Virus record (IMG/VR): IMGVR_UViG_3300021448_000142
Length of the DNA stretch: 64,000 nt
Source of the DNA: a virus
Reading direction: 5' to 3' (one strand)
This document shows, one piece after another, positions 28,844-45,097 of the stretch. The notes under the pieces were generated by a model that was not told the origin of the DNA, did no database searches, and saw nothing but the letters and a program-made list of their open reading frames with translations. The first letter of the stretch is position 1. Each line of letters opens with the position of its first letter. Position numbers and translations under genes: made by a program.

Positions 28844-28963
28844 ATGAGTCAAAAAAACAACACTGACCTAGCCGCAAAGTTGTCAACCAAAACCCCCTGT
28901 TTTAATTGTGGTAATTATACTGACAGTTACGGCAATTGCCCCAATTGCTCGGCAAGCAACTGA
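28844..28963 (+). CDS. Small zinc-finger protein
   Basis: CFNCG...CPNC; ATG at 28844. Confidence 0.5.
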   Translation: MSQKNNTDLAAKLSTKTPCFNCGNYTDSYGNCPNCSASN

Positions 28964-29051
28964 TTTAATTTAAGAATATATCTACTGAATTTTGGGGATT
29001 GTTAACTCAATCCCCCGACAATCCCCAAAGTCGTTAAAAATAGGTCGAACA

Positions 29052-29360
29052 ATGGCAGAACTAGAAATCCAAGGCAAAAGTATCGAGATGGAAACATATA
29101 CCCACGGCACTAAAGATTTTGTAGCTAAGATTGCATTTAATACCCCCGAGAGTGTCGACAGTGATAAATGTCGAGTTCTATATGATATCCATCTGGGCAA
29201 CGGCAAACGTTCAGAATTTACATTCGACAGAGTAGAGTCTGAAATTAACGAATATCTAAATGAAAACTGGGAAGATATAGAAATTGAGGAATTTTTGAGC
29301 ATTGAGATTTACGAAAAAAAGAAAATCAAAAGAAGACCATACGGCAATTACGAGTATTGA
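29052..29360 (+). CDS. Hypothetical cassette protein
   Basis: ATG follows the hairpin element; acidic. Confidence 0.65.
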   Translation: MAELEIQGKSIEMETYTHGTKDFVAKIAFNTPESVDSDKCRVLYDIHLGNGKRSEFTFDRVESEINEYLNENWEDIEIEEFLSIEIYEKKKIKRRPYGNYEY

Positions 29361-29506
29361 CGAATAATTGACAAAAACTTAATTTTGTAGTGGTTTTACC
29401 ACAAATTGCTACAAATGTCCAAAGATGGGCAAATATGGACAAATGTGATAAATCATGTTTGTCCATGATAAATCATGCAATCCAACCATCAATATCGTCA
29501 TCCCTC

Positions 29507-29522
29507 TTTTAAGTGGGGTATG
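29507..29522 (+). promoter_or_regulatory. TATA box with adjacent GGGGTATG motif
   Basis: TTTTAAGT followed immediately by GGGGTATG. Confidence 0.45.
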
Positions 29523-29715
29523 ATATTCGGCAAGTGGCAAATTCCCGACATATTTCCGGATATATCAAAAAATTAAGAGAAAAAATTTCTTAAAAAATCA
29601 AAAATTGGCCGGGGGATTGCGTAAAATATCCCGCATGGTTTAGGGGATATGGGTTAATTTTCTCAGCATTTAGCTGAGTGAGACTTAAAACTCATAAAAA
29701 TTGAAAGGTTAAACC

Positions 29716-29967
29716 ATGAGCATGACAGAAAAAGAAAACGAAAGCGAAAAACGCAAGGAATTGTCAGACAAACTTATTTATTCGGAGAAAAGAATTATTG
29801 TTAATTACGACTTGAATAAATTTAATAATTTTAAAGTCTTGTGTGGTGATGAATATGGAGCGTTTCATATTTCCGATTGGGAAATTGAAATTATCGAAAG
29901 GAGAACAAGTAAAAGTCTTTCGGAAATAAATTGGATTCCTGACGGATTTGTTGTAAAGTTCGATTGA
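29716..29967 (+). CDS. Hypothetical cassette protein
   Basis: ORF track; typical composition. Confidence 0.6.
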   Translation: MSMTEKENESEKRKELSDKLIYSEKRIIVNYDLNKFNNFKVLCGDEYGAFHISDWEIEIIERRTSKSLSEINWIPDGFVVKFD

Positions 29968-30013
29968 TTGAAAATATCAATATTTTGTAGGGGCCTTAGG
30001 CCCCGATGATAAA

Positions 30014-30283
30014 ATGACAAAATCAGAAATTGAATACCACATAATGATGGATAAATTAGAAGAACTACCAGAGGTAAAAAATGTTAAACAAGCTAGAAAT
30101 GAAATTGAGGTTTCAATCGAACCTAAAAACCCCGATTGGGGTATGCCCAACAATCTAGAAAATTTGTTGAAGAATGAAGATATTACCGACGAAAGGTGGG
30201 CAATTGTCGATTTTAGTGGGATGAATACCGATTTAGAAGAATCCAACAAATTCCGAATTACGCTTTATATCAAAACCTTTTAA
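30014..30283 (+). CDS. Hypothetical cassette protein
   Basis: ATG 9 nt after the hairpin. Confidence 0.65.
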   Translation: MTKSEIEYHIMMDKLEELPEVKNVKQARNEIEVSIEPKNPDWGMPNNLENLLKNEDITDERWAIVDFSGMNTDLEESNKFRITLYIKTF

Positions 30284-30360
30284 TTTCTTGTCGAAATTTT
30301 GGCCCCGGTAGGGGTATGTGTGACAAATGACATATACCCCTGCGGGGCTTGAGGCAAACC

Positions 30361-30515
30361 ATGAACATGAGAGATGAAAAGCGGCAAATGCCACACAACA
30401 ACCCCGAACAGCTAGATGTCTATTGTCAGACTGACGATACTGTGACGTTCACTGACAATAAAACGACAATCATCGCAGAAAGCAAGTTTGTCTTTAATCT
30501 CAGTGATGTGAGATA
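30361..30515 (+). CDS. Small hypothetical cassette protein (51 aa)
   Basis: ATG 12 nt after the long hairpin; read manually. Confidence 0.5.
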
Positions 30516-30701
30516 AAAAATGTCACTCAGAACACCATTAGGAAACAGTAGCATCGTGGACCAAAAACCTACTCTATATGATAAGTCTCGGTTTGGAACA
30601 AATGAATTTTATGGAAAATTAGCTGAAAGGTTAGACAATTCTAAACAATAGTATCCTCTACCTGATATTTTAGAACGGACATAGGTCCGTTCGAGTTGAC
30701 A

Positions 30702-31055
30702 ATGACAATGGACAAACAGTTTGAAGCGCGTCGAAACGCCTACAAAAATGTCAAAGAAGCTAATAGTTTGGCCGAAACAGAATTTTCAGAGTTGTTTCAT
30801 GTTGCTCGAACAACTAGTCCAGACAACATGAGAACCAACGGATACAGTAGTGTGTCAATCCCCGTATGCTTCAAAGAAAGCGGGGAATATGAAGTGGGCG
30901 AACCTGTCAAAACACGGTCAGGCGTACACTTTCATGTTAGAAATAGTAACAAATGGAATACGGTTATTTCACTTCCTGTCCGTCCCTTTATGGAAACGCA
31001 AGTGGCAAAAGACGAATTGCTTTGGAAAATTAGCGGTCCGTTTAGAATGAGTTAA
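30702..31055 (+). CDS. Hypothetical cassette protein
   Basis: ATG 9 nt after the hairpin. Confidence 0.65.
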   Translation: MTMDKQFEARRNAYKNVKEANSLAETEFSELFHVARTTSPDNMRTNGYSSVSIPVCFKESGEYEVGEPVKTRSGVHFHVRNSNKWNTVISLPVRPFMETQVAKDELLWKISGPFRMS

Positions 31056-31105
31056 ACCCAATTTTCTGATATTTTGTTATGGGGTTATCCCATAACACGC
31101 GTGAT

Positions 31106-31318
31106 ATGATGGACAATCAAACAGTCGAACGGAAAATAGTTGAAAAGTACGGTGAACATATCATATCAACAAAAGTTTATGAAGAAAATAATATAATTAG
31201 GCTGAAATTTGCGAATCAGAAAAAAGTCATGTGGCTTAAAAAAGAAATATGTCGGGAATTTGACCTAAAAGTACAGCAACACTTAAACTCAAAAATCTAT
31301 TGGTTTGAACCGGCATAA
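31106..31318 (+). CDS. Hypothetical cassette protein
   Basis: ATG 8 nt after the hairpin. Confidence 0.6.
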   Translation: MMDNQTVERKIVEKYGEHIISTKVYEENNIIRLKFANQKKVMWLKKEICREFDLKVQQHLNSKIYWFEPA

Positions 31319-31374
31319 AATAACAATATCAATATTTTGTCGTGGGATTGAACTCCCGCGATAGCAGGTGAAAA

Positions 31375-31713
31375 ATGTCAGAAATAGAAATAACACCGCA
31401 AGAAAGAGAACAGTTTTGTAAAATGGCTTACACATATGGATACGAATATTTCGGGGAGTCATATATCGAATATGACAGCATGGAAGAAATTCGTATCTTA
31501 TGTGATGAATCACGAAACAAAAAATCCAAAAAGGCAATAATCCGCAAAGTCGAAGACTACTTTGGCTTTGAAAGAGAAATCCATGACTGGGATAACTTTG
31601 GGATTTTTGGATTAATCGAGGATATAACCGTGTGTTATGAAGCTGGGGCAAGAAATGGTTTAGATGATGAAAATTATAATCCCGAACGGATTAGCCATAT
31701 GTGGGAATATTGA
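31375..31713 (+). CDS. Hypothetical cassette protein
   Basis: GGTGA SD-like motif; ATG 12 nt after the hairpin. Confidence 0.7.
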   Translation: MSEIEITPQEREQFCKMAYTYGYEYFGESYIEYDSMEEIRILCDESRNKKSKKAIIRKVEDYFGFEREIHDWDNFGIFGLIEDITVCYEAGARNGLDDENYNPERISHMWEY

Positions 31714-31788
31714 ATATTTCAACAACTTTTTCTTATGGGTTTCCCATAAGCGTTTAAACACTTCCCGTAAAAGTGTTTGTGTAATAAA

Positions 31789-31938
31789 ATGACACACTTC
31801 AGCGATAATAAATGTCCAAAATGCGGCAAAGAAAGCGTATGGGTTGAGGAATATACGGATGACGGAGAAATCCACGGGTTATCTGTTGGTTGTGATACGA
31901 TGAATTGCTATTTTTCTGAACAAATAATGTTCGATTAA
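31789..31938 (+). CDS. Small CPxCG-type zinc-finger protein (49 aa)
   Basis: CPKCG...CDTMNC; read manually. Confidence 0.6.
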   Translation: MTHFSDNKCPKCGKESVWVEEYTDDGEIHGLSVGCDTMNCYFSEQIMFD

Positions 31939-32016
31939 AATATTTAATATTTTCTCATACCTCGGGGTATGTGTCAATTCCCAAAGACATACACCAATAG
32001 GGGTATAGTGTCAACT

Positions 32017-32229
32017 ATGCAAATCAAAACGAGAGAACGGAAAAATCAGATAGAAGAAAAGATACGTGAAAATACTGATAGTATCGATAAATTTATCAAA
32101 CCTGGCGACTTGAGGAATCAAAACATTGATAGCTGGGATGATGTTAATGTCAATGAGCTAGAAAAAGAAATAATAGTTCATTCGCTCTTTTATTTCCAGC
32201 CAGGTGAAAACCTGGTGGTAATAACATGA
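32017..32229 (+). CDS. Hypothetical cassette protein
   Basis: In-frame ATG at 32017. Confidence 0.55.
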   Translation: MQIKTRERKNQIEEKIRENTDSIDKFIKPGDLRNQNIDSWDDVNVNELEKEIIVHSLFYFQPGENLVVIT

Positions 32230-32495
32230 AAGAAACAAAAAACATAACCGATAGTGAAAAAGATAAAGTACTTGAAAAGCTATCCAAACGGTACAATTTT
32301 GTCAGTATAGGAACAATAGAAAAGTATTCACCATACAGATATTATTTTGTGACACTTTATTTCGAGGATAAAAACTTCACAATAAGTAATCGTTTTAATG
32401 TTTCTATTGATGATAATCTCTATAATTTTACTATATCCAATATCGCAAAAGTATCAAATGAGACAAATGTAACAATCAGAATCACCAAACAGTAA
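32226..32495 (+). CDS. Hypothetical protein
   Basis: ATGA coupling with the upstream ORF. Confidence 0.6.
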   Translation: MKETKNITDSEKDKVLEKLSKRYNFVSIGTIEKYSPYRYYFVTLYFEDKNFTISNRFNVSIDDNLYNFTISNIAKVSNETNVTIRITKQ

Positions 32496-32728
32496 CCGAG
32501 AATATTCTCTTATTTTGTCATACATTTTGATAGGTTAGCCTATTCGTCAAATCGACGTAAAACCAAGAACCATGCTAGTCAAAGCAACAGTTAACGGTAT
32601 GTCAGTCGAAAAGAACGTAAACAATTTGTCGGAATTTGTAGATTATGTCAAAGGTACTATGGGATTTGAACTTTCAGATATTCAAAACATCCAGCGAATA
32701 GACTGATAAAACTTCTTACTTTTTTGTT

Positions 32729-32902
32729 ATGGAAAACCATAGCATTCCTGATACCAGCGCAAGGGTAAATGTACACAATTTTACTTTTTGCCCGCATTGT
32801 GGCGAAAAAGTAAGAAAAGAAGAAATACAAATATCCAAATACAAATCGAATCAAGAAGTTATTTGCGATAATTGTAATCTTGTTTTGCTGAATAAGCGGT
32901 AA
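32729..32902 (+). CDS. Small CPxCG-type zinc-finger protein (57 aa)
   Basis: FCPHCG...CDNC; the only in-frame ATG lies inside the hairpin left arm. Confidence 0.55.
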   Translation: MENHSIPDTSARVNVHNFTFCPHCGEKVRKEEIQISKYKSNQEVICDNCNLVLLNKR

Positions 32903-32969
32903 ACATCCGTTTAGAAGAATTTCATTTATTTATTATTTTGGTATGGTCTTACCATACCAGTGAGACAAA

Positions 32970-33293
32970 ATGAAAGCTAAAAATGTTCAAACTCGTACAG
33001 ACTATTATCAGTATATTGATGAAAAGGTGGATTACATTGAACACGAATTGCGAAGGGGAATGTCTGCGAATAAACATCGAATCGTTCAAGAACATATAGA
33101 TGGTGATAGAATTATCATAAATTTTAGAAATTGCATTCATGTTCTAGAACTATCAGAAAATGAACCGGAAGAACGGAAGAATTATATTACTGACAATTCT
33201 AACTATAGAGAAGTCATTCGCGCTATGGCATATTCAGTATTCCGGCGAGATATTTATGATGAGATAGCCGACAGAGATATTGATTTAGAATAG
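32970..33293 (+). CDS. Hypothetical cassette protein
   Basis: ATG 10 nt after a perfect 9-bp hairpin. Confidence 0.7.
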   Translation: MKAKNVQTRTDYYQYIDEKVDYIEHELRRGMSANKHRIVQEHIDGDRIIINFRNCIHVLELSENEPEERKNYITDNSNYREVIRAMAYSVFRRDIYDEIADRDIDLE

Positions 33294-33341
33294 TCAGATA
33301 AACAATACGATTTTTGCTAGGGTTGTCCCTAGCTGATAATT

Positions 33342-33467
33342 TTGCTAAAACAGAAACCTAAAGCAAAAGATAAGTGCGACCACTGTAATAGTCACATATC
33401 AGACACATATAACGGTCTGTTTGTCTGTCAAATGTGTTACTATCATTATGGGTATGATGAAATCTAA
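33342..33467 (+). CDS. Small zinc-finger protein (TTG start)
   Basis: CDHC...CQMC; TTG 8 nt after the hairpin. Confidence 0.5.
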   Translation: MLKQKPKAKDKCDHCNSHISDTYNGLFVCQMCYYHYGYDEI

Positions 33468-34060
33468 ATTATCTTAGCGGCATTACATATAACTGATGTG
33501 GTTTAAAATCGCTTTGAGATAGTAGCACAATTTTGATACGGGGTAGCCCATATCAGTGATATAACATTAACTGTAAAATGTAAATACTGCAACTAAAATA
33601 TCTCCCCTAAATTTCCCCGAGTAAATAACTCGGGTGATAACAAATTTCTAACAATTACACAAAACTGGGTAATTGTCAAAATACACACATAATGCGAAAG
33701 ACGGGGGTCCGCTTCTAAAACTATACTTAAGACTTTTCATAGTTTCGAGTGAAGACAGTTACTTCAAAATAACCAAATACTTATAAGCAGGTATCAAAAA
33801 CAAACCAGATGCCCGATAAAAAATGCACTTAAACCTTTCGCTATTTTACCCCTTTATCCCACATAAATGCACCGATAGTTACCACACATATGCCTACCGA
33901 TGGCCAGTAGTAATAAACAACCTATACAGTTATATGTCAAAATGTAAATCGGCAAAATTAGCGAAAAATTTATGAGAACCACGGGGATTGAACCTATAAT
34001 CCCGCATGATTTGAACGGGCGGGGTGACTTTTGGAAAAGCAACAGCTTTTCCGTGATACA

Positions 34061-34267
34061 ATGAACATTGAGAAACTTGAAGAAAAAGATATTGAACAGT
34101 TAGTAATGAAAATGGAATCTCACCGAATACTCATTCTTTTCACAACTGTTCATCTTCTCCATGAATTTATGCTGGATGAAATGGAATTTCGGGAAAAGAA
34201 TGAAGTAAAGATAGAATCAACCAGCCAACTCAATAGAATGAGAGAAATTCTCAAAGAAAACCGATAA
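34061..34267 (+). CDS. Hypothetical cassette protein
   Basis: ATG 8 nt after a perfect 8-bp hairpin. Confidence 0.6.
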   Translation: MNIEKLEEKDIEQLVMKMESHRILILFTTVHLLHEFMLDEMEFREKNEVKIESTSQLNRMREILKENR

Positions 34268-34312
34268 ACTCAATATACAATTTTTCCCGCACAGTGTGCG
34301 GGTGTTCAAACA

Positions 34313-34610
34313 ATGACACAAAAAGAAGAATTCATTGAAGCAATTGAGAACGACGAGTATTGTGTTTGGCAACTCTCCGAAAACATTTACCTTGAAACTG
34401 ATAATCAATTTGATGGGACTTTTCATTCCGTGGCTGTGCGTGAGAGACGAATCACTAACAGAACAGGAAATTGACGATATAATGATGAAAAATAATGTGA
34501 ATGAAGTGTTTAGTTGGTACAAACTTGAAAAATCAAACCAAGAACACCTTTGGGATATTTGTGGTGTTGAAAGCGAGCATGAACAAATAGACCATTCTGT
34601 TTGGGAATAA
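34313..34610 (+). pseudogene. Frameshifted cassette ORF
   Basis: MTQKEEF...HSVAVRE continues as DESLTEQEIDD...HSVWE in another frame; a single-base indel near 34445 would join them. Confidence 0.5.
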
Positions 34611-34808
34611 AATAGTTCTCTCAATTTTTCTATGCTACTACGCATAGTGAACAAATTCCAACATGAACTTACATAAATATATTTTGAAATAAAGCACTCA
34701 CAAGCAAATGGGGGCCGGGGGTCCGAAATATGATAACCGATGGGGGGTACTGGGGATTGAATTGCAAATCTCACATTATTTTGTAGGGCATAGCCCTGCT
34801 GATTCACA

Positions 34809-35057
34809 ATGAACGAAATAGAAAACCTAAGCAATTTGAAAAGAGCAGAACGAATTACACTCGAACTGAAAGACAATTCGGTATTTTGTCATATTCTGTG
34901 TGCAAACGAAAAGAGGGCAATTCTGAATCATGAATACAGCAAAGAAATATATCACGTTCAGGATTCACAGGAAAACGGAATATTTATTGCTTATCTCGAA
35001 GACATAGAAAACAATTCAGCAACGTTTCTGGAAGAAAACATCACTTTGAGATATTAA
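34809..35057 (+). CDS. Hypothetical cassette protein
   Basis: ATG 9 nt after the hairpin. Confidence 0.65.
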   Translation: MNEIENLSNLKRAERITLELKDNSVFCHILCANEKRAILNHEYSKEIYHVQDSQENGIFIAYLEDIENNSATFLEENITLRY

Positions 35058-35102
35058 TTCAACTCACATATTTTGTGGTGGATTTCCGCCACAGATAACA
35101 CG

Positions 35103-35324
35103 ATGCCAAGAAACCAAAATCAAAAAGAAGTTGTCTTTGAATCACTTGAAGGAACTAAACGAATCTATGCTATCAGTGTTGAATGGAAAGATAATCACTT
35201 GTCCATTAGACATTATCCAAATAAAAACGAAAGAAAATTTCTGCAAGAAGACGAAATTATCCTCTGCAATATAGAAACAAAAGAAATCCCACTTTCAAAA
35301 GTGTTTGAAGTGAACAGTATTTAA
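35103..35324 (+). CDS. Hypothetical cassette protein
   Basis: ATG 9 nt after the hairpin. Confidence 0.65.
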   Translation: MPRNQNQKEVVFESLEGTKRIYAISVEWKDNHLSIRHYPNKNERKFLQEDEIILCNIETKEIPLSKVFEVNSI

Positions 35325-35381
35325 TCTGAACAATTTTTGTGGGGGAATTTTTGTGGGGGAATTATCCCCTACAGTTTCAAC

Positions 35382-35801
35382 ATGGAACCTGAATATCACA
35401 ACCGTATCGGTACTGTTTCAATCGGTGAAAAGTATGAATCAGTGACAATTGAACAGGGAACAATTAGTCTTGGGGACATTCTTGCGTGCGAAGGCCCCGA
35501 TAACAGATATCATCGTGAAAGGGTGACAAGCTCTATTTATGTTGCTCCAGTTGAAGCAATTTACCGTTTCACTGGTAAAATGTCAACCCGAGAAGCACAG
35601 TTAGAATTTGGTATTCCGGCACCAATTGGCCGGATTGATATGGAAAATATTCTTGCAATTTCTGGAAAAGAGATTCATTACTATCAAGACGGACGAAGAT
35701 GTGATATGAAGTCCATTAAACGGTTTATCGGTTCTGATTATGATAGATATATGCACATAGAATGGGTGCCCTGTGGAAATTTCCGTGTGAGCGGCGAATA
35801 A
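35382..35801 (+). CDS. Hypothetical cassette protein
   Basis: ATG 8 nt after the hairpin. Confidence 0.7.
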   Translation: MEPEYHNRIGTVSIGEKYESVTIEQGTISLGDILACEGPDNRYHRERVTSSIYVAPVEAIYRFTGKMSTREAQLEFGIPAPIGRIDMENILAISGKEIHYYQDGRRCDMKSIKRFIGSDYDRYMHIEWVPCGNFRVSGE

Positions 35802-35902
35802 GCAGACCACTCCTAATTATTTTTCGTTGCCATTGTGCAACGGTGACTGCTAATGAAAAACACAACTAACACGTTCGACTTTAACGAGGTAGAAGTATAA
35901 CA

Positions 35903-36091
35903 ATGTGTGGTTTTTACTATGGGAATTGTGAAATCTGCAAAGCCACAATTCGCAAAGAAGAACACGAGTCGTACCACCGCTGTTTTGCGTGTTTTGAGTG
36001 GTATGATGAACCCGGCGGAGCGGAGCTAGACCCGGAAGAACGCCCCCCATCAAGCATCCCGAACCACCCAAGCGATTACGATGGTGAGTAA
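35903..36091 (+). CDS. Small zinc-finger protein
   Basis: CEIC...CFAC. Confidence 0.6.
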   Translation: MCGFYYGNCEICKATIRKEEHESYHRCFACFEWYDEPGGAELDPEERPPSSIPNHPSDYDGE

Positions 36092-36094
36092 AAA

Positions 36095-36460
36095 ATGAGA
36101 CACGAAATCAACACTGAAACGAACAGCCCCATTGAAAGCAGTATCGACCGAACGTGGGACCACTATGCTTATGTCGATGATGGTGAATATGCGGTTGTAG
36201 TTGGCGTTTCGTGGGCAGAAATTGATAAAAGCGACGAGCATTGGGATGGGCATAGAGATACAGACACACCAACGGTTAAATACAAAGTTTATGTCTGTGA
36301 GGCTGGCCTTGTCGATGAATTGCGAACTGCTGTGAATACCCACAGAACCGAAAATCCTAACAATTTGGCCGACGTGGCCGTGGAAATCATGGAAATGCTT
36401 ATCGAAGAAGACGACCGAACGCCCATCCAAGCCGCGAAAGATTACTGGGACGACAAATAA
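36095..36460 (+). CDS. Hypothetical acidic protein
   Basis: GGTGA SD-like motif before the ATG; typical composition. Confidence 0.7.
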   Translation: MRHEINTETNSPIESSIDRTWDHYAYVDDGEYAVVVGVSWAEIDKSDEHWDGHRDTDTPTVKYKVYVCEAGLVDELRTAVNTHRTENPNNLADVAVEIMEMLIEEDDRTPIQAAKDYWDDK

Positions 36461-36537
36461 TTAAAGCGCATTGGTTAAGAATAGAGTCTCAAATTCGCGT
36501 ATTTTCTGTGGGGAGTGCGCCCCCACAGTGGTTCAAA

Positions 36538-36918
36538 ATGTCAAACGAAAAACAAGCCATAGATGAAGAACAGATTGCAAGTGGAATTGTGTTTGATATT
36601 GAACACTATAGACAGGGTGAACCGTTCGACCGTGTTGCTATAGGGATTCATGAATGGGAAAATCGAATAACCAAATATATCTACGATTTGGACAAAGAAA
36701 GTGCAGAAACAGTCTTGCGTATTCATGCCAAATATTATCTTAATAGAGAAATCGCGGAAAAACGCCGGAACTTGGAAAAGTATCATGTTGAAGATGGTTG
36801 TGTTCATCACGCTGGAACAGAACACGAATTAGAACAGTTTATTGAAGATAACTTTTATGTAGACCCTGTAATATCAATCACCGACGAATTTGAAAGCGTA
36901 GTTGATGAATTGAACTAA
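36538..36918 (+). CDS. Hypothetical cassette protein
   Basis: ATG 9 nt after a perfect 8-bp hairpin. Confidence 0.7.
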   Translation: MSNEKQAIDEEQIASGIVFDIEHYRQGEPFDRVAIGIHEWENRITKYIYDLDKESAETVLRIHAKYYLNREIAEKRRNLEKYHVEDGCVHHAGTEHELEQFIEDNFYVDPVISITDEFESVVDELN

Positions 36919-36970
36919 AGTTTAATTCTTTTATATTTTGGTGGGGTATGCCCCCACCTGTGATTCAAAA

Positions 36971-37249
36971 ATGACACTTGATGTACCCAATTGGCAACAC
37001 AAATCAGGATACAGCATAAAAGCAGACGGTCAACAAATTATATATGAACATACTGAAATGCCGTGGAAAGCGGTGATTGAGGGTGTTCTTGCCGAAAACG
37101 AAGAACCACCATTTGATTTTCAGTATTATGTTGCAATATTCGATAAATCTACAAACTTCCCCACGAAAACAATTGAAGCACATGAATTCTTTGCCGAAAA
37201 AGAAAATGCTATAGAAGACTTGGAATCGAAAATGAAGAAACACAGTTAG
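36971..37249 (+). CDS. Hypothetical cassette protein
   Basis: ATG 12 nt after the hairpin. Confidence 0.65.
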   Translation: MTLDVPNWQHKSGYSIKADGQQIIYEHTEMPWKAVIEGVLAENEEPPFDFQYYVAIFDKSTNFPTKTIEAHEFFAEKENAIEDLESKMKKHS

Positions 37250-37304
37250 AATCTCTTATTCTTTTCTTGGGGAATTATCTCCCAAGCACTCAAGGTAGAA
37301 TATT

Positions 37305-37495
37305 ATGGTGAAAATAGAAATTGACACTGAACGCAAATCAAGTAGTATAGACCAAAAAAAATGTCAGAATTATCAACAAATCAACTGCTTGAATTATATG
37401 ATTTCTTAAAAACCAATTCTAACGCAGAATTGGTAAGTTCTGAATTGATGTTCCGAGCAAGAACAAAAGAAAAATATCGTATGAAGAACAAATAA
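37305..37495 (+). pseudogene. Cassette ORF possibly split at an A8 run
   Basis: ATG 37305 frame and ATG 37361 frame would fuse with one extra A in the A8 run at 37354-37361. Confidence 0.3.
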
Positions 37496-37573
37496 ACGAA
37501 ATTGAGCGCAGGCTCTAGGTAACACTTATAAATATTTTGGATAAGCTAGGTATGCTTATCCGGTGAACACAAT

Positions 37574-37777
37574 ATGTCACGAATTGGAGAATTCCGGTAC
37601 ACCGGCAATGGAAAGCTTCTGAACAACGACGAGACATATACCATCTTCGACATTGGAAATTCTTATGAAGCATATCCTGAAGGTGGAACGGAACCCATTA
37701 AGATTAATCGGGGAACCTTTGTGTCTCTCCGGCGTGGAAATCTCGAACAGACTGAAGGCGCAACTCCGATGGGATAA
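37574..37777 (+). CDS. Hypothetical cassette protein
   Basis: GGTGA motif; ATG 12 nt after the hairpin. Confidence 0.65.
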   Translation: MSRIGEFRYTGNGKLLNNDETYTIFDIGNSYEAYPEGGTEPIKINRGTFVSLRRGNLEQTEGATPMG

Positions 37778-38270
37778 TAATCTAATCCAATATAGTCTAA
37801 CCCGAAATAGTCTACCCAGCCAAATACCCATTTTTGCTGTGGGGTTTCCCACACGCAAACTACTATGAAAATTGAGATAAAAAATGGCAAAATGATTATA
37901 ATCACCGCGTATAAAGAAAAATTCATTCCACGCGCAGAACAACTTTAGGAAAATATTTAACTCCGAAATAATAGAGGTAAAACAATGCCAATCGTCTCTA
38001 AGAAAACATTAGAACATAAGAAAACGGAAACAAAGCTAAAAGATGGTAGATGAACCGCACAATTGCGGTTCTGGAACCTGTGTAATTTGCGAAATACAAG
38101 CGGCTGTTCGTGAATACTGTGAAAATTGTACTGAAAATGAAAAGTGTTCTGCGTGTCAAGAAGCTGAAAAATAGGACGGCTAGTTGCAGGCTTGCAGGAC
38201 TAGGGGATTGCTTTCTTAACCCCGCATCATTTTGGAGGGGAAGATAATTTCTCTCCAGTCAAAATGACAA

Positions 38271-38564
38271 ATGACAATAGATAATTCAGCAATCACAAAA
38301 ATCTACAAAGTTGCACAAGCATTTGAAAAGGATTTCAACCCGGATAACTTCGATATTATCGGATTGTATCATGAGTATGACGACCACGAACATTCAGATT
38401 TGCCCCAATATAGAGTTTGTGTTGTAGTTGAAGACATAGGGAATTTTTCAACGTTTGTCTTCCCCATTGCCGAATTCGGACGAAAGCAGGGATTATTCTT
38501 ATTTGATACTGTGAGCAATTGGGAAGATGAGACGGTGAAACTCCGATTCGGCTACAAAGCATAG
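38271..38564 (+). CDS. Hypothetical cassette protein
   Basis: ATG 13 nt after the hairpin. Confidence 0.65.
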   Translation: MTIDNSAITKIYKVAQAFEKDFNPDNFDIIGLYHEYDDHEHSDLPQYRVCVVVEDIGNFSTFVFPIAEFGRKQGLFLFDTVSNWEDETVKLRFGYKA

Positions 38565-38657
38565 GAACTTATACTTCTTGTACTATTTGTCACCTATATC
38601 TTGACAAAACGCACACAAACTATAACATTTTGTGGGGGTTTGCCCCCGCCAATCAGC

Positions 38658-38996
38658 ATGAAAGACCACTATGCATACTTGGTAACTGGTCGAAACGACT
38701 TAGAAGAAAATCTTGTGTATCAATCTGCGGGTGTTGAACGGATTATTCCAAAATTGTGCGAAGGCGACAAACTGCGTTTGCAACGTGAAGGCAAAAGCTA
38801 TCCGCAAATTTTTGTTCAAGTATTAGAAAATCATGGTGAATTTGTTGTTGTAGAAGACGAAAACAATAACCATTATAAACTGTGGGGAAGATGGTACCCG
38901 GAGAATTCAAGAGCGACGGCGCAGGCATGGTTGCGAACAGATACCAACACTTCAGCAGGGCGGGTAACTAGTTTGACGATTCTGAACCTCACATAG
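38658..38996 (+). CDS. Hypothetical cassette protein
   Basis: ATG 8 nt after the hairpin. Confidence 0.65.
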   Translation: MKDHYAYLVTGRNDLEENLVYQSAGVERIIPKLCEGDKLRLQREGKSYPQIFVQVLENHGEFVVVEDENNNHYKLWGRWYPENSRATAQAWLRTDTNTSAGRVTSLTILNLT

Positions 38997-39048
38997 GTAT
39001 CTTTTTATTTCCCCATGCACAAACATGGGGTGAATCGAGACTTAAATC

Positions 39049-39201
39049 ATGATTAAAAAACCACAACAAACTGGCTGTAAGAGCATCGAACTGCTAAACG
39101 AAGGCGTAGCGAACGGCATTCTTAGCATGCTTATCGCCTCCTATCCCGTTGAGTACGATGAAGAAAAAGACGTGTATAAAGTGGGTGAAAGAGATGACTG
39201 A
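39049..39201 (+). CDS. Small hypothetical cassette protein (50 aa)
   Basis: Read manually; overlaps the next ORF. Confidence 0.45.
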   Translation: MIKKPQQTGCKSIELLNEGVANGILSMLIASYPVEYDEEKDVYKVGERDD

Positions 39202-39415
39202 CTCAAAAGAAATTAATAAAAATCGTACCAGAGAAGTAGGGGACGGTATGATGGCTATAGTCAAATATGTGAAACCGAAAGTCGGGCTTCGCGGCAAATA
39301 CAGACCAATCTATGAGGGTAAGATTTATTTCCACGATAATTTCATACAACTGGCTGAACATGAAGACAATCGGAGAATTCCCTACAGTCGAATCTACTAT
39401 ATCGACAACCAATAA
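39194..39415 (+). CDS. Hypothetical protein (Sm-like beta pattern possible)
   Basis: In-frame ATG at 39194 overlapping the upstream stop. Confidence 0.55.
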   Translation: MTDSKEINKNRTREVGDGMMAIVKYVKPKVGLRGKYRPIYEGKIYFHDNFIQLAEHEDNRRIPYSRIYYIDNQ

Positions 39416-39499
39416 CCGAGTACAATTCTGTCTTCCCATAGTTAAAGTTCTTGTCGGAACAATTTTTTTCTGTGGGATTGTCCACAGGTGACTTCCAAA

Positions 39500-39679
39500 A
39501 TGACAGATGAAGAAACCGAACACGTATTGGAACGGCTGGAACAAATTGATGAAGATATTTCAGCACTCCGAGAACATCCAATGGTTGATGGATTCCGGGC
39601 AGGAGAAGCACTCGATATGGCACGAGAGTATGTTGAAGTAGCGAAGCGAGATATTGAAGGCACAAAAACCGACGAATAA
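39500..39679 (+). CDS. Small helical cassette protein
   Basis: GGTGA motif; ATG 12 nt after the hairpin. Confidence 0.65.
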   Translation: MTDEETEHVLERLEQIDEDISALREHPMVDGFRAGEALDMAREYVEVAKRDIEGTKTDE

Positions 39680-39743
39680 CCAAAGAAAATTTTATATAGT
39701 GCCCCCGCTAAACTATTTTCGTGTCAATTAATGACACAGGAGT

Positions 39744-40265
39744 ATGCGCATGGGAATAGATGATAACCCCACAATCAAAGGCAAGATTGACTTAACAAAT
39801 GAACAAACAATTGACGAAGCTCCCCATTGGCAAAACGAGGGAGAAACAATAGATGTAGCAGACAACCAAGATGGTGGCAAAGACAACACATCATTTTGGC
39901 CGGATGAAATTGAAAACCCAAATGATTTAACAGATTTGCAACGGTCAGTTGTTTATCATTCTGTTATCAATCAGCAACACAATAGTAGCCAAATTGCAGA
40001 GAAGATAGATAAAAGAGGTGGATATGTTCGAGCAACATTAAAACGGGTCTGTCCAGACTGGTATGAGGATGTATTTAAGCCCGCGACAAATAAAGGCTCG
40101 TATGACGGGAATGAAGTATTAAAGAATATGACAACAGAGTGCGATAAATGTGGGTGTGAAATAATTCTTCATGAACCACTCAACGGCAATCTAAAACTCC
40201 GGTGTCGCTGTACAAAAGTTCCTATTCGAGCTATGCTCCCACCGGATTGGTTAAGAGACTTTTAA
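39744..40265 (+). CDS. Putative HTH plus zinc-ribbon protein
   Basis: LTDLQRSVV...SSQIAEKIDKRGGYVRATLKR (HTH-like); CDKCG...CRC. Confidence 0.6.
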   Translation: MRMGIDDNPTIKGKIDLTNEQTIDEAPHWQNEGETIDVADNQDGGKDNTSFWPDEIENPNDLTDLQRSVVYHSVINQQHNSSQIAEKIDKRGGYVRATLKRVCPDWYEDVFKPATNKGSYDGNEVLKNMTTECDKCGCEIILHEPLNGNLKLRCRCTKVPIRAMLPPDWLRDF

Positions 40266-40325
40266 TTCACCGCATAAAACCGAAACTTATTTCTGTGGTA
40301 CTGAATAATGTGCCACTGTCTCATA

Positions 40326-40625
40326 ATGGCCTGCAAAAACTGTGGCGAAGACTTACTATACAATAAGCGAACTGGTAAACGCTGTGCTGGTTGCGGGAGT
40401 ATGTCTCAACCCAAAACGGGACTCATCGAAGAACGTCCCACGAAACCACATGATGCGTCCTGTGGTGAATTACTGGATAATATGCCAAACCATGACCCTG
40501 CACTTCCGCGCATGATACAACAGATGTGTGTGGATGGAAGTCATTGTCAGTTTAACCCAACAACAATGAGACAGACAGAAAACGGACGGTGGATTGCAGT
40601 GTGTACTATCCATAACAATGAATAA
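40326..40625 (+). CDS. Cys-rich zinc-finger protein
   Basis: CKNCG, CAGCG and further Cys/His residues; ATG 9 nt after the hairpin. Confidence 0.6.
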   Translation: MACKNCGEDLLYNKRTGKRCAGCGSMSQPKTGLIEERPTKPHDASCGELLDNMPNHDPALPRMIQQMCVDGSHCQFNPTTMRQTENGRWIAVCTIHNNE

Positions 40626-40812
40626 ATCAAAAATAGAAAAGCCCACGCCCCAATATCATCCCGGAGATATAGTTGATGTGCCGGTTCGACGGTGCAAGGG
40701 CGAAATCGTTGAACGGATGTATAATGATGAAAACGATTCGTGGTTATATCGTGTCTATCGTGCAGATGGAGATAGACAAATCGGTATTTATCAGGAAAAG
40801 AATATAGAGTAA
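40618..40812 (+). CDS. Small SH3-like protein
   Basis: YHPGDIVDV...GEIVE...WLYRV pattern. Confidence 0.6.
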   Translation: MNKSKIEKPTPQYHPGDIVDVPVRRCKGEIVERMYNDENDSWLYRVYRADGDRQIGIYQEKNIE

Positions 40813-41047
40813 ACCAACTCTCTATTTTGGTGGAAAAAAGCCTGTTTCCGACCGACAAAGTTAAGTTCTTGTAAAACTTACGTATGCACGGGGAGTTAGT
40901 TATACCCCTGGTCGTGGCTGGCATGATTGTTCTCAAGGACAGATGCCAGTCAGAGTATTTTTTCTTCTCTTTATTTCGGGAGTAAAGTCATGCAATTGAA
41001 ACCCGGCTTCCAGTTCTATTTTGTGGTCACAAAGACCACGGATACCG

Positions 41048-41317
41048 ATGAAATACTACAAATTCAAACTCCGACTTGGGTCCGTATTCCGTAAAGTCGT
41101 CATTAGGGGAGAAGATAAAGAACATTGCCGGGTTCTTGCAGAACGCATGGTTTCCAAATACCGAGAACAGGTGGTGACTTCGCAAAATGTAACAAAGACA
41201 TTTAAACGGACAGACAACGAAACAGCACTAATGAAAGTCGGGGCGGATTTCTTGCTTGTTCCAGGTGAATTCACTGAACTACCCAAACAAGTTCACAATC
41301 CGAAAGCTCGCATATAA
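41048..41317 (+). CDS. Hypothetical cassette protein
   Basis: ATG 8 nt after the hairpin. Confidence 0.6.
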   Translation: MKYYKFKLRLGSVFRKVVIRGEDKEHCRVLAERMVSKYREQVVTSQNVTKTFKRTDNETALMKVGADFLLVPGEFTELPKQVHNPKARI

Positions 41318-41395
41318 ATCTCCAAATCAATTTTTTTCTCATAGTGAAAAAGCCGTAGTAAACGGCGGGGATTAACCTCTCAACCCCGCATGATT

Positions 41396-41965
41396 TTACT
41401 GGCCGGGAGACGGTGCTTCTCGTTCCATTTCCCCTTTCAATTTCTGCCCCTCAATGAAGCCGCTCTGGAAAGACGTAAAAGCCGATTCCCTGTCAATATC
41501 ATTTTCAAGCGCTGTGCGAATTCCCATGCGAAACACTTTATGCCACACTTCATCTTCCGGTGGCATAACTTCAGACCCGGCAGGCGACATTTCCACGTCG
41601 TAAGTATCGTTCACAACATTATCCCCATCGCTGTCCTCATCGCTGTTGTTGGGTTCGGTCGGAATGTTTGATTCATCGAGAATATCTTGCGGGACGTAGT
41701 GACTCCGCAAAACATTCCGAATGTGGGAACCGGAATATCCATCATCTAATTCTTCCTGAGAGGTTTGGGTAAGTTCCTTGATGGAAACCGGCCAATGTTC
41801 ATTAACCAATTCCACAATATCTTTCGCGCCGCGCGTCCCCGCTTCTTTTACCTGAATCAACTGGTCGGGATACGGCGAATAAATATACGGTGGTTCTCCC
41901 AGTTCGGTCCAGTTTTGTTCGGTTGCAATCTCTATGTTGTCGTTTGCCATTTTAAATTCCTCCAT
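41396..41965 (-). CDS. Hypothetical protein, possible HTH regulator (only leftward gene in the block)
   Basis: Acidic composition on the - strand; SIKELTQ...SGSHIRNVLRSH is HTH-like. Confidence 0.65.
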   Translation of the reverse strand: MEEFKMANDNIEIATEQNWTELGEPPYIYSPYPDQLIQVKEAGTRGAKDIVELVNEHWPVSIKELTQTSQEELDDGYSGSHIRNVLRSHYVPQDILDESNIPTEPNNSDEDSDGDNVVNDTYDVEMSPAGSEVMPPEDEVWHKVFRMGIRTALENDIDRESAFTSFQSGFIEGQKLKGEMEREAPSPGQ

Positions 41966-42293
41966 TTACACCTATGGGATGTGTCCCCCTTTGTTATACT
42001 GTTAGTTATCCAACTCAAGGGGTGCCTGATATATTATTCGTAGTTATGTTGATTGAGTAACTATAACATAAAACTATTTATCCCCCTCCCACGTATGGAG
42101 TAATGCACCATGATGTGCAATGACACAGGGGAGAATTGTAACTGCCCACAAATAACCCGCAAGCAAGACACGATTAACGTCGATGGAGAGCTAATTGATT
42201 TTGAGGTCTGCATATCCTGCTATAGTATCTTAGCGTAGTGGTGTGGGGGCGGTGGGGATAATTTCGTGTGGATAACCACACGGTGACAAAACT

Positions 42294-43367
42294 ATGAGTC
42301 AAAGCAACATCGAAATCGGCAGTCGTGAAATCGGGGCATTGGCTAGTGATGACGACAACCCAGACAAATACATTGGGCATCTGGTTTTCTCGACAACCGG
42401 CATGGTCCATGTGGCACGCAAATGGTTAGAAGAACAGTGGGGTTCGCATAATCTCCCGGAAGAATTGTTTCCGCGTGAGATTAGCAATTGGAGCGCGTAC
42501 CGGAGAGCAATCAATCAAATACAAGAAGACGAAGAACTACTGAATTATACAGTGTATAACGACGCATACGAACAAGCATTTAACTGTCATTTTGAAATTG
42601 AAAAGAGTGGAGAAGAAGGAACAAACGTGTATATTGTGTATGCCCGCACATTCCTCCCGGAAGAAGTTAATGGGCAAAAAGGCGGTAATTGGTCGGAACA
42701 ACGAGTAGGATACTTCGATTTCTATAAGGGAGAAGATGATGATTTGCCGGGTGCGTTAGTGACGTTTGCGGAAATTGATGATGAAAATATTCACCATTCT
42801 CACCTCATGGACCTTTTCGATTCAGCCCGCGAAAAAGAAGAAAAAATGCGAACACATCACAACTACAACGACCTGCAAGGCATTCTCGATGAATTCCGAA
42901 CAAAGGCACAAGCCGTTGAGATTCGCCGGTCTGTATATTTCTTCCCTGCCCATGCTGAAGAAGAACTAGAAGGAATGGCCGAAATATGGGATGGACTAAA
43001 CGCATGGAAAGAAAACGGGGAATTGGTTCGCATCGAGAAAACCCCTGTGGTTGACATGGCAGAACAACGGAAAATCGTCGCTACTCGTGTGCGAGAAAAG
43101 GTAGAGCAAGCAGTCGGGGATATTACAGGTGAAATCATTGAAGAATTCCGCGAGACTGAAGAACAAACCGCCGATGAAGCCGCTCGCAAACTGATGAATC
43201 AATTAAACGAATCAGAAGAAATGGCTGGAACATATAATCAGTTGCTCGGCATTCGGCTATCCATCCAAGATATTTTGGATGAACGTCGGGAAGACTTAGA
43301 GGATGAGGCAGATGAAATCATCGAAAACGTTATCAACCAACAGACGTTTAATGAGGTTGAAGCATGA
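42294..43367 (+). CDS. Conserved helical protein (DUF6744/DUF3150-like)
   Basis: GHLVFST, LP.ELFP...SAYRRA, RRSVYFFP motifs recalled from this family; located upstream of the AAA+/vWA pair. Confidence 0.55.
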   Translation: MSQSNIEIGSREIGALASDDDNPDKYIGHLVFSTTGMVHVARKWLEEQWGSHNLPEELFPREISNWSAYRRAINQIQEDEELLNYTVYNDAYEQAFNCHFEIEKSGEEGTNVYIVYARTFLPEEVNGQKGGNWSEQRVGYFDFYKGEDDDLPGALVTFAEIDDENIHHSHLMDLFDSAREKEEKMRTHHNYNDLQGILDEFRTKAQAVEIRRSVYFFPAHAEEELEGMAEIWDGLNAWKENGELVRIEKTPVVDMAEQRKIVATRVREKVEQAVGDITGEIIEEFRETEEQTADEAARKLMNQLNESEEMAGTYNQLLGIRLSIQDILDERREDLEDEADEIIENVINQQTFNEVEA

Positions 43368-43391
43368 AGTTCGCTAATTGGGAGATGTTTA

Positions 43392-43700
43392 TTGATGGAT
43401 ATTAGAGGCTTCTTGAACCCATTGAAAAGAAAATGGTGGAAAAAAGATGAATGGCATGTTGTTGATGAATCCATCATTGGCTATGAAGTAGTAGAAACAT
43501 ATGAATGTCCAGCGTGGGATGCAAAACGATATGTTTTATCAAAGTATAGAAATAAGAATACGTGTGAAATTCGCTACCGCAAACGGAAAAAACCATTGAA
43601 AAATCCCCGGACAAAAACAGTCTGGTCGGAACAAACTTTAGAAAAATTGAACATCATCGGTGAAGACATTGAAGTGTACGATGGAGGAAGATATGAGTAG
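43392..43700 (+). CDS. Hypothetical basic protein
   Basis: ORF track. Confidence 0.55.
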   Translation: MMDIRGFLNPLKRKWWKKDEWHVVDESIIGYEVVETYECPAWDAKRYVLSKYRNKNTCEIRYRKRKKPLKNPRTKTVWSEQTLEKLNIIGEDIEVYDGGRYE

Positions 43701-43795
43701 ATGTGTGATAGTATTTGTCTCATCTCGTTAGGACGAATCCCACTGAATGTACTGAAAAACTACGTCGAAGACCAACGAACACGAACCACAAACCC

Positions 43796-43984
43796 ATGAA
43801 AGCAAGCGAGAAATGTGAAAACTGTGGAAGTATTGTAACTAACCAATTCGCAAAGGTCTTCGGGGACCAAAACGATACCATCCACCATTGCCCTGATTGT
43901 TTGAAAGATATGGGTATCAACCGGCAAATGATGCAAAATGGTGCAGGTGCCGTCACTGACTTAGAAAATACTCCCCGGCAGTAG
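43796..43984 (+). CDS. Haloarchaeal-type small zinc-finger protein
   Basis: CENCGSIVTNQFAKVFG...CPDC; ATG at 43796. Confidence 0.7.
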   Translation: MKASEKCENCGSIVTNQFAKVFGDQNDTIHHCPDCLKDMGINRQMMQNGAGAVTDLENTPRQ

Positions 43985-44035
43985 TTCAACCGAAACATTT
44001 TTATTTGGGTGGAAATAATTTTCCACCGGATGCAA

Positions 44036-45097
44036 ATGACTACCACAGGATACAATACTGAAACGCTGGAAATGGAATCCGGCGAACCCACGGGCGAACA
44101 CGTCACATACGAATTTGATGGACTGTCCAAAGAAATCGAATTGGCACTGCCAAAACTAGAAGATGTGGGGCACCCCAAAGTACCCGAAGTTAACCAAGAT
44201 TATATTCCCCGGCAAATCTATGGAGAACTGGATTTGAAGGTTCTTTCACACACGATAGAAGACCCCGATTTCTTTGCCATGATGGAAGGTGAGGCAGGTG
44301 TCGGGAAGAATATGAGCGCAGAGTGGTTGCTATCTCAAGCCAATTGGCCCCGAGAGCGAGTAAACTTCTCCATCAGCACATCTTATGAGGGTCTGGTTGG
44401 GAGATTTGTGCCAAAGGATAGTGCAGAAGGCGAAGACATTAATACTATTCTTTCAGCACTTATTAATGCTGAAACCCCCACAGAACGTAAAGAAATTATT
44501 AATGAATATAATATTCAGTCTGATTCAAATTTCAAATGGGTTGATGGACTGCTGACGCGATGTGTCAAAAATGGTTGGGCTTTTATTGCAGATGAAATCA
44601 ATGCCGCTGATGATGAAGCTATCATGCCGTTCAATGGACTAACAGAAGATAGAGATTCGCGCTACCTCACCATCGAAGAACTAAGTACGGTTATTGAACC
44701 TCACCCTCGTTTTCGTCTTATCGCTACCCGAAACCCCGAAGATTATGCAGGAGTTGGGCATATGAATTCAGCACTCGAATCTCGTGCCTATATTCTCTCT
44801 TATGACTACCACGAAAAAGAAGCGCTTTATCAAATTCTCCAAAACCGAACAAATATTATCGAAAATTCAAGCGAGGAAGCAATGAAAAATCTCGTGAGAA
44901 TGGTACAAGACATTCGCAAACAAGAGCAAGCTGGAACGCAATTCATGACCAAAATTAGTACGCGAGACTTAATTAAAATGGGGCGTCTAACGGATATTAT
45001 GTCAATTGAAAATGCGGCCCGAACGGTAATTATGGGTGTCGCAGACCCGACCGATGAAAACGCTTTAGAGAACGAAATCAACACAACGAACTTCTAA
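44036..45097 (+). CDS. MoxR/CbbQ/NirQ-type AAA+ ATPase
   Basis: GEAGVGKN, LVGRF, WVDGLLT, DEINAA, HPRFRLIATRNP.DYAG, ALESR motifs; ATG 8 nt after the hairpin. Confidence 0.9.
   Translation: MTTTGYNTETLEMESGEPTGEHVTYEFDGLSKEIELALPKLEDVGHPKVPEVNQDYIPRQIYGELDLKVLSHTIEDPDFFAMMEGEAGVGKNMSAEWLLSQANWPRERVNFSISTSYEGLVGRFVPKDSAEGEDINTILSALINAETPTERKEIINEYNIQSDSNFKWVDGLLTRCVKNGWAFIADEINAADDEAIMPFNGLTEDRDSRYLTIEELSTVIEPHPRFRLIATRNPEDYAGVGHMNSALESRAYILSYDYHEKEALYQILQNRTNIIENSSEEAMKNLVRMVQDIRKQEQAGTQFMTKISTRDLIKMGRLTDIMSIENAARTVIMGVADPTDENALENEINTTNF

Follow-up and report, generated by a model that had tools for sequence, protein, structure and literature searches.

An array of T-run and hairpin units before small genes of an uncultivated haloarchaeal tailed virus: a candidate composite promoter, terminator and RNA attenuator

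The DNA considered here is a 64,000-nucleotide stretch (the window) of the IMG/VR virus record IMGVR_UViG_3300021448_000142, and our subject is an array of about 36 repeated units on its plus strand, at 28990–44030, in each of which a short T-run is followed directly by a hairpin of variable sequence, mostly before small plus-strand genes that are chiefly ORFans. The window has a guanine-plus-cytosine (GC) content of ~40% and belongs to a low-GC uncultivated tailed virus of Halobacteria from a halite (salt-crust) metagenome; its DNA is present in halite metagenome runs. The large open reading frames (ORFs) include those for a family-B DNA polymerase, an RFC-like clamp loader, an XPD-type helicase, a PrkA/PrkA/DUF444/SpoVR block, ThyX, an ERCC4 nuclease, a MoxR-type AAA_5 ATPase with its vWA partner, and a tape-measure protein. 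The polymerase is 39% identical to those of the tailed Haloarcula viruses HCTV-5 and HVTV-1, and PrkA (block 11684–19008) ~70% identical to Halobacteriales proteins. Since this is a virus of Halobacteria, archaeal transcription rules apply. A nucleotide search of a phage collection with the window gave 0 matches, and Rfam and tRNA scans across the window gave no match. Seventeen of 20 array proteins had no match in Pfam and the other three only weak, sub-threshold ones; the block 28990–44030 is probably a hyperplastic, ORFan-rich, early region.

The array, first described in an initial annotation of this DNA, is real. A strict scan (T3+, offset 0–3 nt, perfect stem of at least 6 bp, loop of 3–10 nt) finds 30 sites within 28901–44100, where 100 dinucleotide-preserving shuffles lead one to expect 2.19±1.43 (maximum 6), so that a chance reading can be rejected; an artefact of low GC is likewise rejected, because unrelated low-GC viral contigs carry no array. 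The array sites lie on the plus strand alone and are nearly all intergenic. Over the whole window, 28 of the 36 strict plus-strand hits fall within 28–40 kb, the 23 minus-strand hits are spread evenly without any cluster, and the replication and tail blocks, which had been said to lack the unit, hold ~6 plus-strand hits, a chance level. All 36 sites originally listed fold as hairpins within 3 nt of the T-run (RNAfold ΔG −5.6 to −36 kcal/mol), one of them (unit 33) weakly, and one further unit lies 5' of the range first given:

28990–44030, plus strand: whole array, ~36 units
28620–28641, plus strand: extra unit, T-run 28620–28623 and hairpin 28624–28641 (TTTT and a 7-bp stem; strict scan)
28993–29027, plus strand: unit 1 hairpin, core stem 28994–29015 (ΔG −15.0)
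29662–29678, plus strand: unit 2 hairpin (strict scan, folding)
29990–30004, plus strand: unit 3 hairpin (strict scan, folding)
30301–30349, plus strand: unit 4 long hairpin, 49 nt, T-run and ATG spacing to the hairpin base kept (ΔG −36.3)
30673–30692, plus strand: unit 5 hairpin (strict scan, folding)
31075–31097, plus strand: unit 6 hairpin (strict scan, folding)
31338–31363, plus strand: unit 7 hairpin, one G·T (folding, mismatch count)
31732–31750, plus strand: unit 8 hairpin (strict scan, folding)
31957–32006, plus strand: unit 9 long hairpin, 50 nt, small core 31956–31971 (strict scan, folding)
32725–32744, plus strand: unit 10 hairpin, one G·T (folding, mismatch count)
32939–32959, plus strand: unit 11 hairpin (strict scan, folding)
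33316–33333, plus strand: unit 12 hairpin (strict scan, folding)
33534–33555, plus strand: unit 13 hairpin, geneless (folding)
33614–33637, plus strand: unit 14 hairpin, geneless (strict scan, folding)
34033–34052, plus strand: unit 15 hairpin (strict scan, folding)
34286–34302, plus strand: unit 16 hairpin, kept with a different stem before all six orthologues of its gene (folding, orthologue comparison)
34630–34647, plus strand: unit 17 hairpin, only a micro-ORF downstream (folding)
34783–34799, plus strand: unit 18 hairpin (folding)
35072–35095, plus strand: unit 19 hairpin, one G·T (folding, mismatch count)
35332–35373, plus strand: unit 20, hairpin 35352–35373 preceded by a tandem copy of T-run and 5' arm (sequence, folding)
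35825–35842, plus strand: unit 21 hairpin, then a 15-codon ORF (sequence, folding)
36506–36528, plus strand: unit 22 hairpin (strict scan, folding)
36940–36958, plus strand: unit 23 hairpin (strict scan, folding)
37266–37286, plus strand: unit 24 hairpin (strict scan, folding)
37539–37561, plus strand: unit 25 hairpin (strict scan, folding, orthologue comparison)
37835–37857, plus strand: unit 26 hairpin, short ORF downstream (folding)
38233–38257, plus strand: unit 27 hairpin, two G·T, immediately 3' of a motif-2 copy (folding, mismatch count)
38632–38649, plus strand: unit 28 hairpin (folding)
39011–39030, plus strand: unit 29 hairpin (strict scan, folding)
39470–39487, plus strand: unit 30 hairpin (strict scan, folding)
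39721–39737, plus strand: unit 31 hairpin (strict scan, folding)
40295–40316, plus strand: unit 32 hairpin, one G·T (folding, mismatch count)
40827–40855, plus strand: unit 33 hairpin, bulged, weak and doubtful (ΔG −8.3)
41020–41042, plus strand: unit 34 hairpin (strict scan, folding)
42265–42282, plus strand: unit 35 hairpin, 5' of the DUF6744 gene at 42294–43367 (strict scan, folding, orthologue comparison)
43991–44030, plus strand: unit 36, canonical promoter box CGAAAC..TTTTTATT 43991–44005, hairpin 44005–44030, then the AAA_5 gene (promoter scan, covariation)

Each unit had been thought to head a short gene, which is true of most, with ~7 heading a micro-ORF or no gene at all. In the non-coding stretches 33470–34030 and 34650–34780 of the array, the units at 33534, 33616 and 34630 are intact and yet geneless or followed only by a micro-ORF, and those at 35825 and 37835 likewise head little coding sequence. 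The long hairpins of units 4 and 9 have a GGGGTATGTGT core in common, perhaps a short insertion or duplication within the two units. At 35332–35359 a 14-nt half-unit (T-run and 5' arm) is tandemly duplicated before unit 20, and a divergent metagenome contig aligns there with many indels.

The same array is present in all five syntenic relatives that we could find, whose nucleotide identity is only ~66–70%. Homologues of the DUF6744 protein, 42–57% identical, lie on the syntenic viral contigs L003, L005, L007 and L008, and an AAA_5 alignment led to L009, part of a complete genome of 106,233 bp with direct terminal repeats (L001 exactly duplicates the window, L004 duplicates L003 and L006 duplicates L005, so that none of the three adds variation). 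Each relative's locus (~19–21 kb) holds 12–21 units with an ATG within 16 nt, against scores of 0–4 for the comparison loci, namely unrelated viral contigs (GC 31–57%) and HVTV-1; in the first 50 kb of the HVTV-1 isolate, a family-level relative, the unit is absent and small genes overlap instead. In the complete 106-kb relative, 38 of 60 plus-strand hits lie at 80–95 kb, the array again being confined to one block. Neither single-protein searches of IMG/VR nor an AAA_5 alignment against metagenome contigs brought up close relatives. As to the host, the GC of ~40% contrasts with a PrkA that shares ~70% identity with proteins from high-GC Halobacteriales; such a composition would suit either a Haloquadratum-like host or a high-GC host carrying a strongly AT-shifted virus.

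The anatomy of the unit was derived from a logo of 111 units pooled from six genomes. The sole conserved element upstream is a 9-bp box of A and T only, at −9 to −1 from the hairpin, which ends in T4–5 and touches the hairpin; T occupies −4 to −2 in 91–95% of units, positions −45 to −10 show no conservation, and a second A/T box 25–35 nt 5' of the hairpin is absent from the logo. The hairpin begins 0–3 nt 3' of the A/T box and measures 15–23 nt in total, with stems of 6–9 bp and loops of 3–6 nt that are 78% A/T. Of the 111 units, 100 open their stem with G or C. G makes up 40% of the 5' arms and C 40% of the 3' arms, and in 83/111 a G stands second from the loop on the 5' side, an orientation bias for which stability alone offers no explanation. 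Immediately 3' of the hairpin comes (G)TGA(T), then 4–8 nt, then ATG. The distance to ATG is 6–12 nt from the hairpin end (mode 9) and 22–33 nt from its start (mode 29–30), in agreement with the spacing in the initial annotation. Matches of at least 4 nt to the anti-16S sequence GGAGGTGAT, at a spacing of 4–8 nt to ATG, are found in 56% of units vs 19% of shuffles, and matches of at least 5 nt in 22% vs 3.6%; among non-array genes such a Shine-Dalgarno (SD)-like motif occurs in 10/44, with no enrichment. Stem sequences are unrelated from unit to unit, TTTT and TGA being all that units share, and the register of the unit is fixed to the downstream ATG and not to the end of the upstream gene. 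Only in the relatives L003, L005, L007 and L008 is there a more distant box, a conserved CATTTTTAT 5' of the DUF6744 gene, ~21 nt before the hairpin and not touching it; a transcript starting from this box would begin at the hairpin base, which would make the hairpin 5'-terminal in the DUF6744 mRNA of these four relatives.

What is selected in the hairpin is pairing. In every ortholog group with units, the stems are wholly different between genomes and the flanks are retained. For the unit before the AAA_5 gene, the ortholog alignment shows both-sided (compensatory) changes at 6 of 8 pairs, and 90% of its cells pair, falling to 40–70% in slid registers; such covariation was reached in 0/500 shuffles. 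The imperfect positions are mostly G·T, as had been noted at the outset in favour of single-strand folding: the stems of the window hold 10 G·T, 2 A·C and 3 other mismatches, and one-mismatch stems over six genomes number 11 with G·T vs 2 with A·C. Given this excess of G·T over A·C, it is the coding strand or the corresponding RNA that folds, and the site is not a symmetrical duplex one.

A second element accompanies the units. Motif 2, rGGGATTR-N9-10-CYCGCA-YNNTTT(T), is a sequence-conserved hairpin (GGGATT/AATCCC) with CGCA and a T-run, present in 4 copies in the window:

29611–29641, plus strand: motif 2, copy 1 (pattern search)
33982–34012, plus strand: motif 2, copy 2 (pattern search)
38202–38232, plus strand: motif 2, copy 3, abutting unit 27 (pattern search)
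41366–41396, plus strand: motif 2, copy 4, abutting the 3' end of the minus-strand ORF 41396–41965 (pattern search)

There are 3–6 copies in each relative's array, so that motif 2 is found in all six genomes (G001, L003, L005, L007 and L008 among them), nearly always on the plus strand; three minus-strand hits and one at 59208 of the window are degenerate and lie outside arrays. Its stem also covaries (GGGATT/AATCCC to GAGATT/AATCTC), it frequently adjoins a hairpin unit, and its order is hairpin, then T-run. Motif 2 could be a genuine terminator, or else a repeat promoter of the HF2 type. The ORF at copy 4, of 189 aa, is the lone minus-strand one inside the otherwise plus-strand array; L005, L007 and L008 have a comparable minus-strand ORF of 164–181 aa immediately 5' of DUF6744.

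How might such a unit be read by archaeal RNA polymerase (RNAP)? The window provides its own ruler. Canonical haloarchaeal promoters of the form CGAAAC-NN-TTTTTAWW (CGAAAC-TTTTTATT), in which the TATA box is preceded by a transcription factor B recognition element (BRE), lie at 11403, 19245 and 48975, and the ORFs at 11439, 19282 and 49012 start with ATG 21–22 nt after the canonical box, implying leaderless mRNAs. The wider pattern CGAAA(C/G)-NN-TTTTTAWW occurs at 6059, 11403, 19245, 43991 and 48975. In haloarchaeal promoters generally, a further A/T element is found at −10/−11. When the 21–22 nt from box to start are applied to the array, transcription is predicted to begin 1–5 nt 3' of the hairpin, on the (G)TGA, ~8 nt before ATG. 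The position of the A/T box then fits a haloarchaeal core promoter (BRE, a TATA box ~22–30 nt before the start, and a purine at the start), with G or A of TGA at the predicted start but BRE mostly absent, and the A/T-rich hairpin loop would come to lie near −10/−11. With the start just past it, the hairpin would fill the spacer between TATA box and start, which would explain its narrow 15–23-nt size range. At unit 36 a full canonical BRE/TATA abuts the hairpin, the same hairpin that covaries among orthologues. The leaderless geometry seen here agrees with that of the haloarchaeal tailed virus HF2, in which TATA and BRE positions have been mapped (PMC8707807).

We propose, with confidence that is about evenly balanced and by analogy with the promoter-early stem-loops (PeSLs) of T4-type phages, that the unit is a composite of oligo-T terminator/TATA box, RNA hairpin attenuator and short leader, one per ORFan gene. 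In this scheme the A/T box would be the TATA box of the downstream gene and, since its T's run directly into G or C when the coding strand is read, at the same time the oligo-T terminator of the upstream gene. Transcription would start on the TGA motif and yield a leader of ~8 nt. RNA made from the predicted promoter would exclude the hairpin, and yet coding-strand pairing is selected, so that the hairpin would have to act in read-through RNA or in DNA; we suspect that it works at the RNA level, when transcription of the upstream gene runs on past the T-stretch, attenuating or insulating such transcripts and possibly protecting their ends. The TGA(T)/GGTGA in such read-through RNA would also be usable as an SD site. 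The outcome would be that ~35 serial genes of the same direction are expressed as separate, individually dosed units. The initial suggestion of an archaeal U-tract terminator with a stabilising hairpin thus survives as a part of this proposal, although the hairpin would be 5'-terminal only if transcripts were cut at the U-tract.

Several considerations weigh against the composite unit. Its start site, promoter activity, termination and hairpin action are all things that we infer from geometry, covariation and analogy. Most units are without the CGAAA BRE of this virus's canonical promoters, the T-run is mostly 4–5 and thus short for an efficient archaeal terminator, and a leader of ~8 nt is unusual in haloarchaea. 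The 49–50-nt hairpins of units 4 and 9 hold the spacing of the flanks yet break the TATA-to-start geometry. We know of no established mechanism by which a hairpin after a U-tract stops archaeal RNAP. Lastly, an SD can serve only where the RNA starts 5' of it, so that the enrichment of SD-like motifs in array units allows or favours long polycistronic transcripts, and also fits the next possibility.

This possibility, which we consider the most serious of the alternatives though on the whole unlikely, is that the unit is a purely post-transcriptional, intercistronic element in a few long polycistronic RNAs, made from canonical promoters or motif-2 sites, and that the A/T box is no promoter. U-tract, hairpin and GGUGA would together be a boundary of cleavage, termination or decay, at which the hairpin shields the new 5' or 3' end and presents the SD to the internal cistron. 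The confinement of SD enrichment to units, as opposed to non-array genes, and the lack of BRE in most of them would follow naturally, the G·T asymmetry of the coding strand indicates RNA, both long hairpins retain the flanks at their base, motif 2 could mark operon starts or ends, and very long transcripts are made in HF2 (PMC8707807). A role in RNA only, however, leaves it unexplained why there should be a 9-bp A/T-only box rather than plain U's, why the hairpin is confined to 15–23 nt and why the distance from box to ATG matches the TATA geometry of the genome's own promoters. Unit 36 with its full canonical BRE/TATA right on the hairpin, the persistence of geneless units and the want of an established archaeal nuclease of such site preference speak in the same direction. 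The composite promoter and the intercistronic RNA element are not mutually exclusive.

A third possibility is that the DNA hairpin or cruciform is itself needed for initiation, whether the enzyme is the host RNAP aided by a viral factor or a polymerase of the virus, as the initial annotation suggested by reference to phage N4. N4 has three early hairpin promoters, read by its virion RNAP on the template strand, each with a short stem whose small loop lies ~11 nt before the start. The likeness is that structure and not stem sequence matters: pairing is selected and stem sequence free, and a stem of 6–9 bp with a loop of 3–6 nt has its centre ~10–11 nt before the predicted start. The missing BRE and the orientation bias of the 5' arm, with its G second from the loop, would also suit such a promoter. 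The array differs from N4 in its ~36 units per genome, in a host-type, TATA-like A/T box that is always there, and in wobbles that favour the coding strand, since a coding-strand G·T becomes an A·C mismatch in a template-strand hairpin. No T7/N4-type RNAP domain (PF00940) was matched in the complete relative, but the search control likewise matched nothing anywhere and is uninformative; no archaeal virus is known to encode an RNAP (PMC5569661), which weighs against an N4-like polymerase. The promoter geometry of the N4 suggestion is supported, but we consider the reading as a whole improbable. The same small likelihood attaches to its stronger form, a new class of archaeal promoter in which the stretch from TATA box to start must fold, as a cruciform or as a hairpin of the coding strand with its A/T loop at −10/−11, for opening or recognition to take place, and pairing, not sequence, defines ~35 early promoters per genome; its reader may be host RNAP at high salt, possibly with a virus-encoded factor.

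We think it very improbable that the units are structure-defined recombination sites like integron attC, or PeSL-like recombination hot spots, that move one-gene cassettes. Turnover of array genes is certainly strong: of the window's ~30, only 6 have a homologue in those stretches of the relatives' arrays that were sampled. Two gene families occupy different places from one genome to the next, with the flanking block collinear throughout; there are also empty units and a tandem duplicate of one half-unit. As in attC, imperfect palindromes lie between one-gene cassettes with structure conserved and sequence not. Yet attC sits at the 3' end of a promoterless cassette, whereas the unit here is tied to the downstream start codon and its cassettes apparently have their own promoter. 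No attC-type R''/L''–L'/R' core is found at the stem base, which is G/C-biased only in the 111 units, and a tyrosine recombinase (PF00589) is absent from the complete 106-kb relative, by a search whose control was positive in 14/14 genomes. Sharing nothing beyond TTTT and TGA, units offer little homology for PeSL-type exchange. The DNA contigs of three halite metagenome runs over 28–46 kb, at low depth, contained no joints, deleted forms or informative variants. The comparison of relatives for gain and loss of cassettes, suggested in the initial annotation, revealed turnover and two relocated families; no breakpoint can be placed, because the relatives are only 66–70% identical. On the whole the attC-like model is poorly supported. 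Finally, that the palindromes are double-stranded operators of a dimeric DNA-binding regulator, as their position between TATA box and start, usual for a repressor site, might suggest, is the least probable reading and is rejected, since stems are unrelated between units and between orthologues and the asymmetry of G·T vs A·C is unexpected in a duplex site.

If the composite terminator/promoter/insulator is true, T4-type phages and haloarchaeal tailed viruses converged on one design with unrelated transcription machineries, a design that would serve the expression and exchange of many small accessory genes. The ~150 natural variants, in six genomes, of structure between predicted TATA box and start are a ready test set, which would bear on the effects of RNA or DNA structure in archaeal initiation, read-through and termination, all of them poorly understood. 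The signature marks what are probably the early or anti-defence genes of a clade of uncultivated viruses, and provides a search rule for hypersaline metagenomes: A/T box, 15–23-nt hairpin, TGA, 4–8 nt and ATG.

It remains to place the unit among known systems. A bacterial intrinsic terminator has a GC-rich hairpin followed by a U-tract; here the T-run comes first, and on the minus strand the hairpin is joined by an A-run, so that, as pointed out initially, the order fits on neither strand. Closer is the archaeal oligo-T terminator, in which T's between genes, 3' of the stop codon, give way to C or G, and the units show this arrangement; in Haloferax volcanii termination reaches 95% of transcripts at a T5C stretch and 59% at a hairpin alone, but hairpins there lie upstream of the 3' end, whereas here the hairpin follows a T-run of mostly 4–5 (PMC7237163). 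The early-promoter signatures of Sulfolobales viruses, which mark anti-defence genes, likewise give many small early or ORFan genes a common promoter-proximal signature, but they are sequence-conserved BRE/TATA contexts with no hairpins (PMC11065993). The intergenic repeats of HF2 (class I of 58 bp, class II of 29 bp) are repeated promoter elements of a haloarchaeal tailed virus with BRE/TATA/initiator (INR) geometry; being sequence-conserved, ~9 in number and without a covarying hairpin, they are closer to motif 2 than to the hairpin units (PMC8707807).

The nearest likeness is to the PeSLs of the T4-type phages RB49/phi1, PST and nt-1 (PMC2839356, PMC4122927). In these a strong early promoter of host type contains a stem-loop, as a rule between its −35 and −10 elements and often polyG then polyC, with SD and ATG at the 3' end (PMC2839356); they head ORFans in hyperplastic regions, and the stem-loop is a terminator/attenuator of upstream transcription (PMC2839356, PMC4122927). 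The array here shares with them the dense succession of small ORFans in a hyperplastic region whose gene content turns over between relatives, and the repeated intergenic unit before small, mostly ORFan genes (~36 units per 15 kb, in one block). In both, the unit closes with SD and start codon and the stem-loop has a G-rich first and a C-rich second arm; by geometry the stem-loop would also lie inside the promoter, ending here 1–5 nt before the predicted start. The signals differ, being archaeal (A/T box or TATA) with no −35/−10, and so does the extent of conservation, ~13 nt per unit here, with stems unconserved, vs ~100 bp in PeSLs; with so little conserved, homologous exchange is unlikely. 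The literature searched contained no account of intergenic cassettes with hairpins in viruses of archaea. The initial view of an undescribed cassette or expression system therefore holds as far as an expression module heading one-gene cassettes is concerned, while a module of this kind is already known from the T4-type PeSLs (PMC2839356, PMC4122927); not wholly undescribed in kind, the unit seems to be an archaeal equivalent of the promoter/stem-loop cassettes of T4-type phages.

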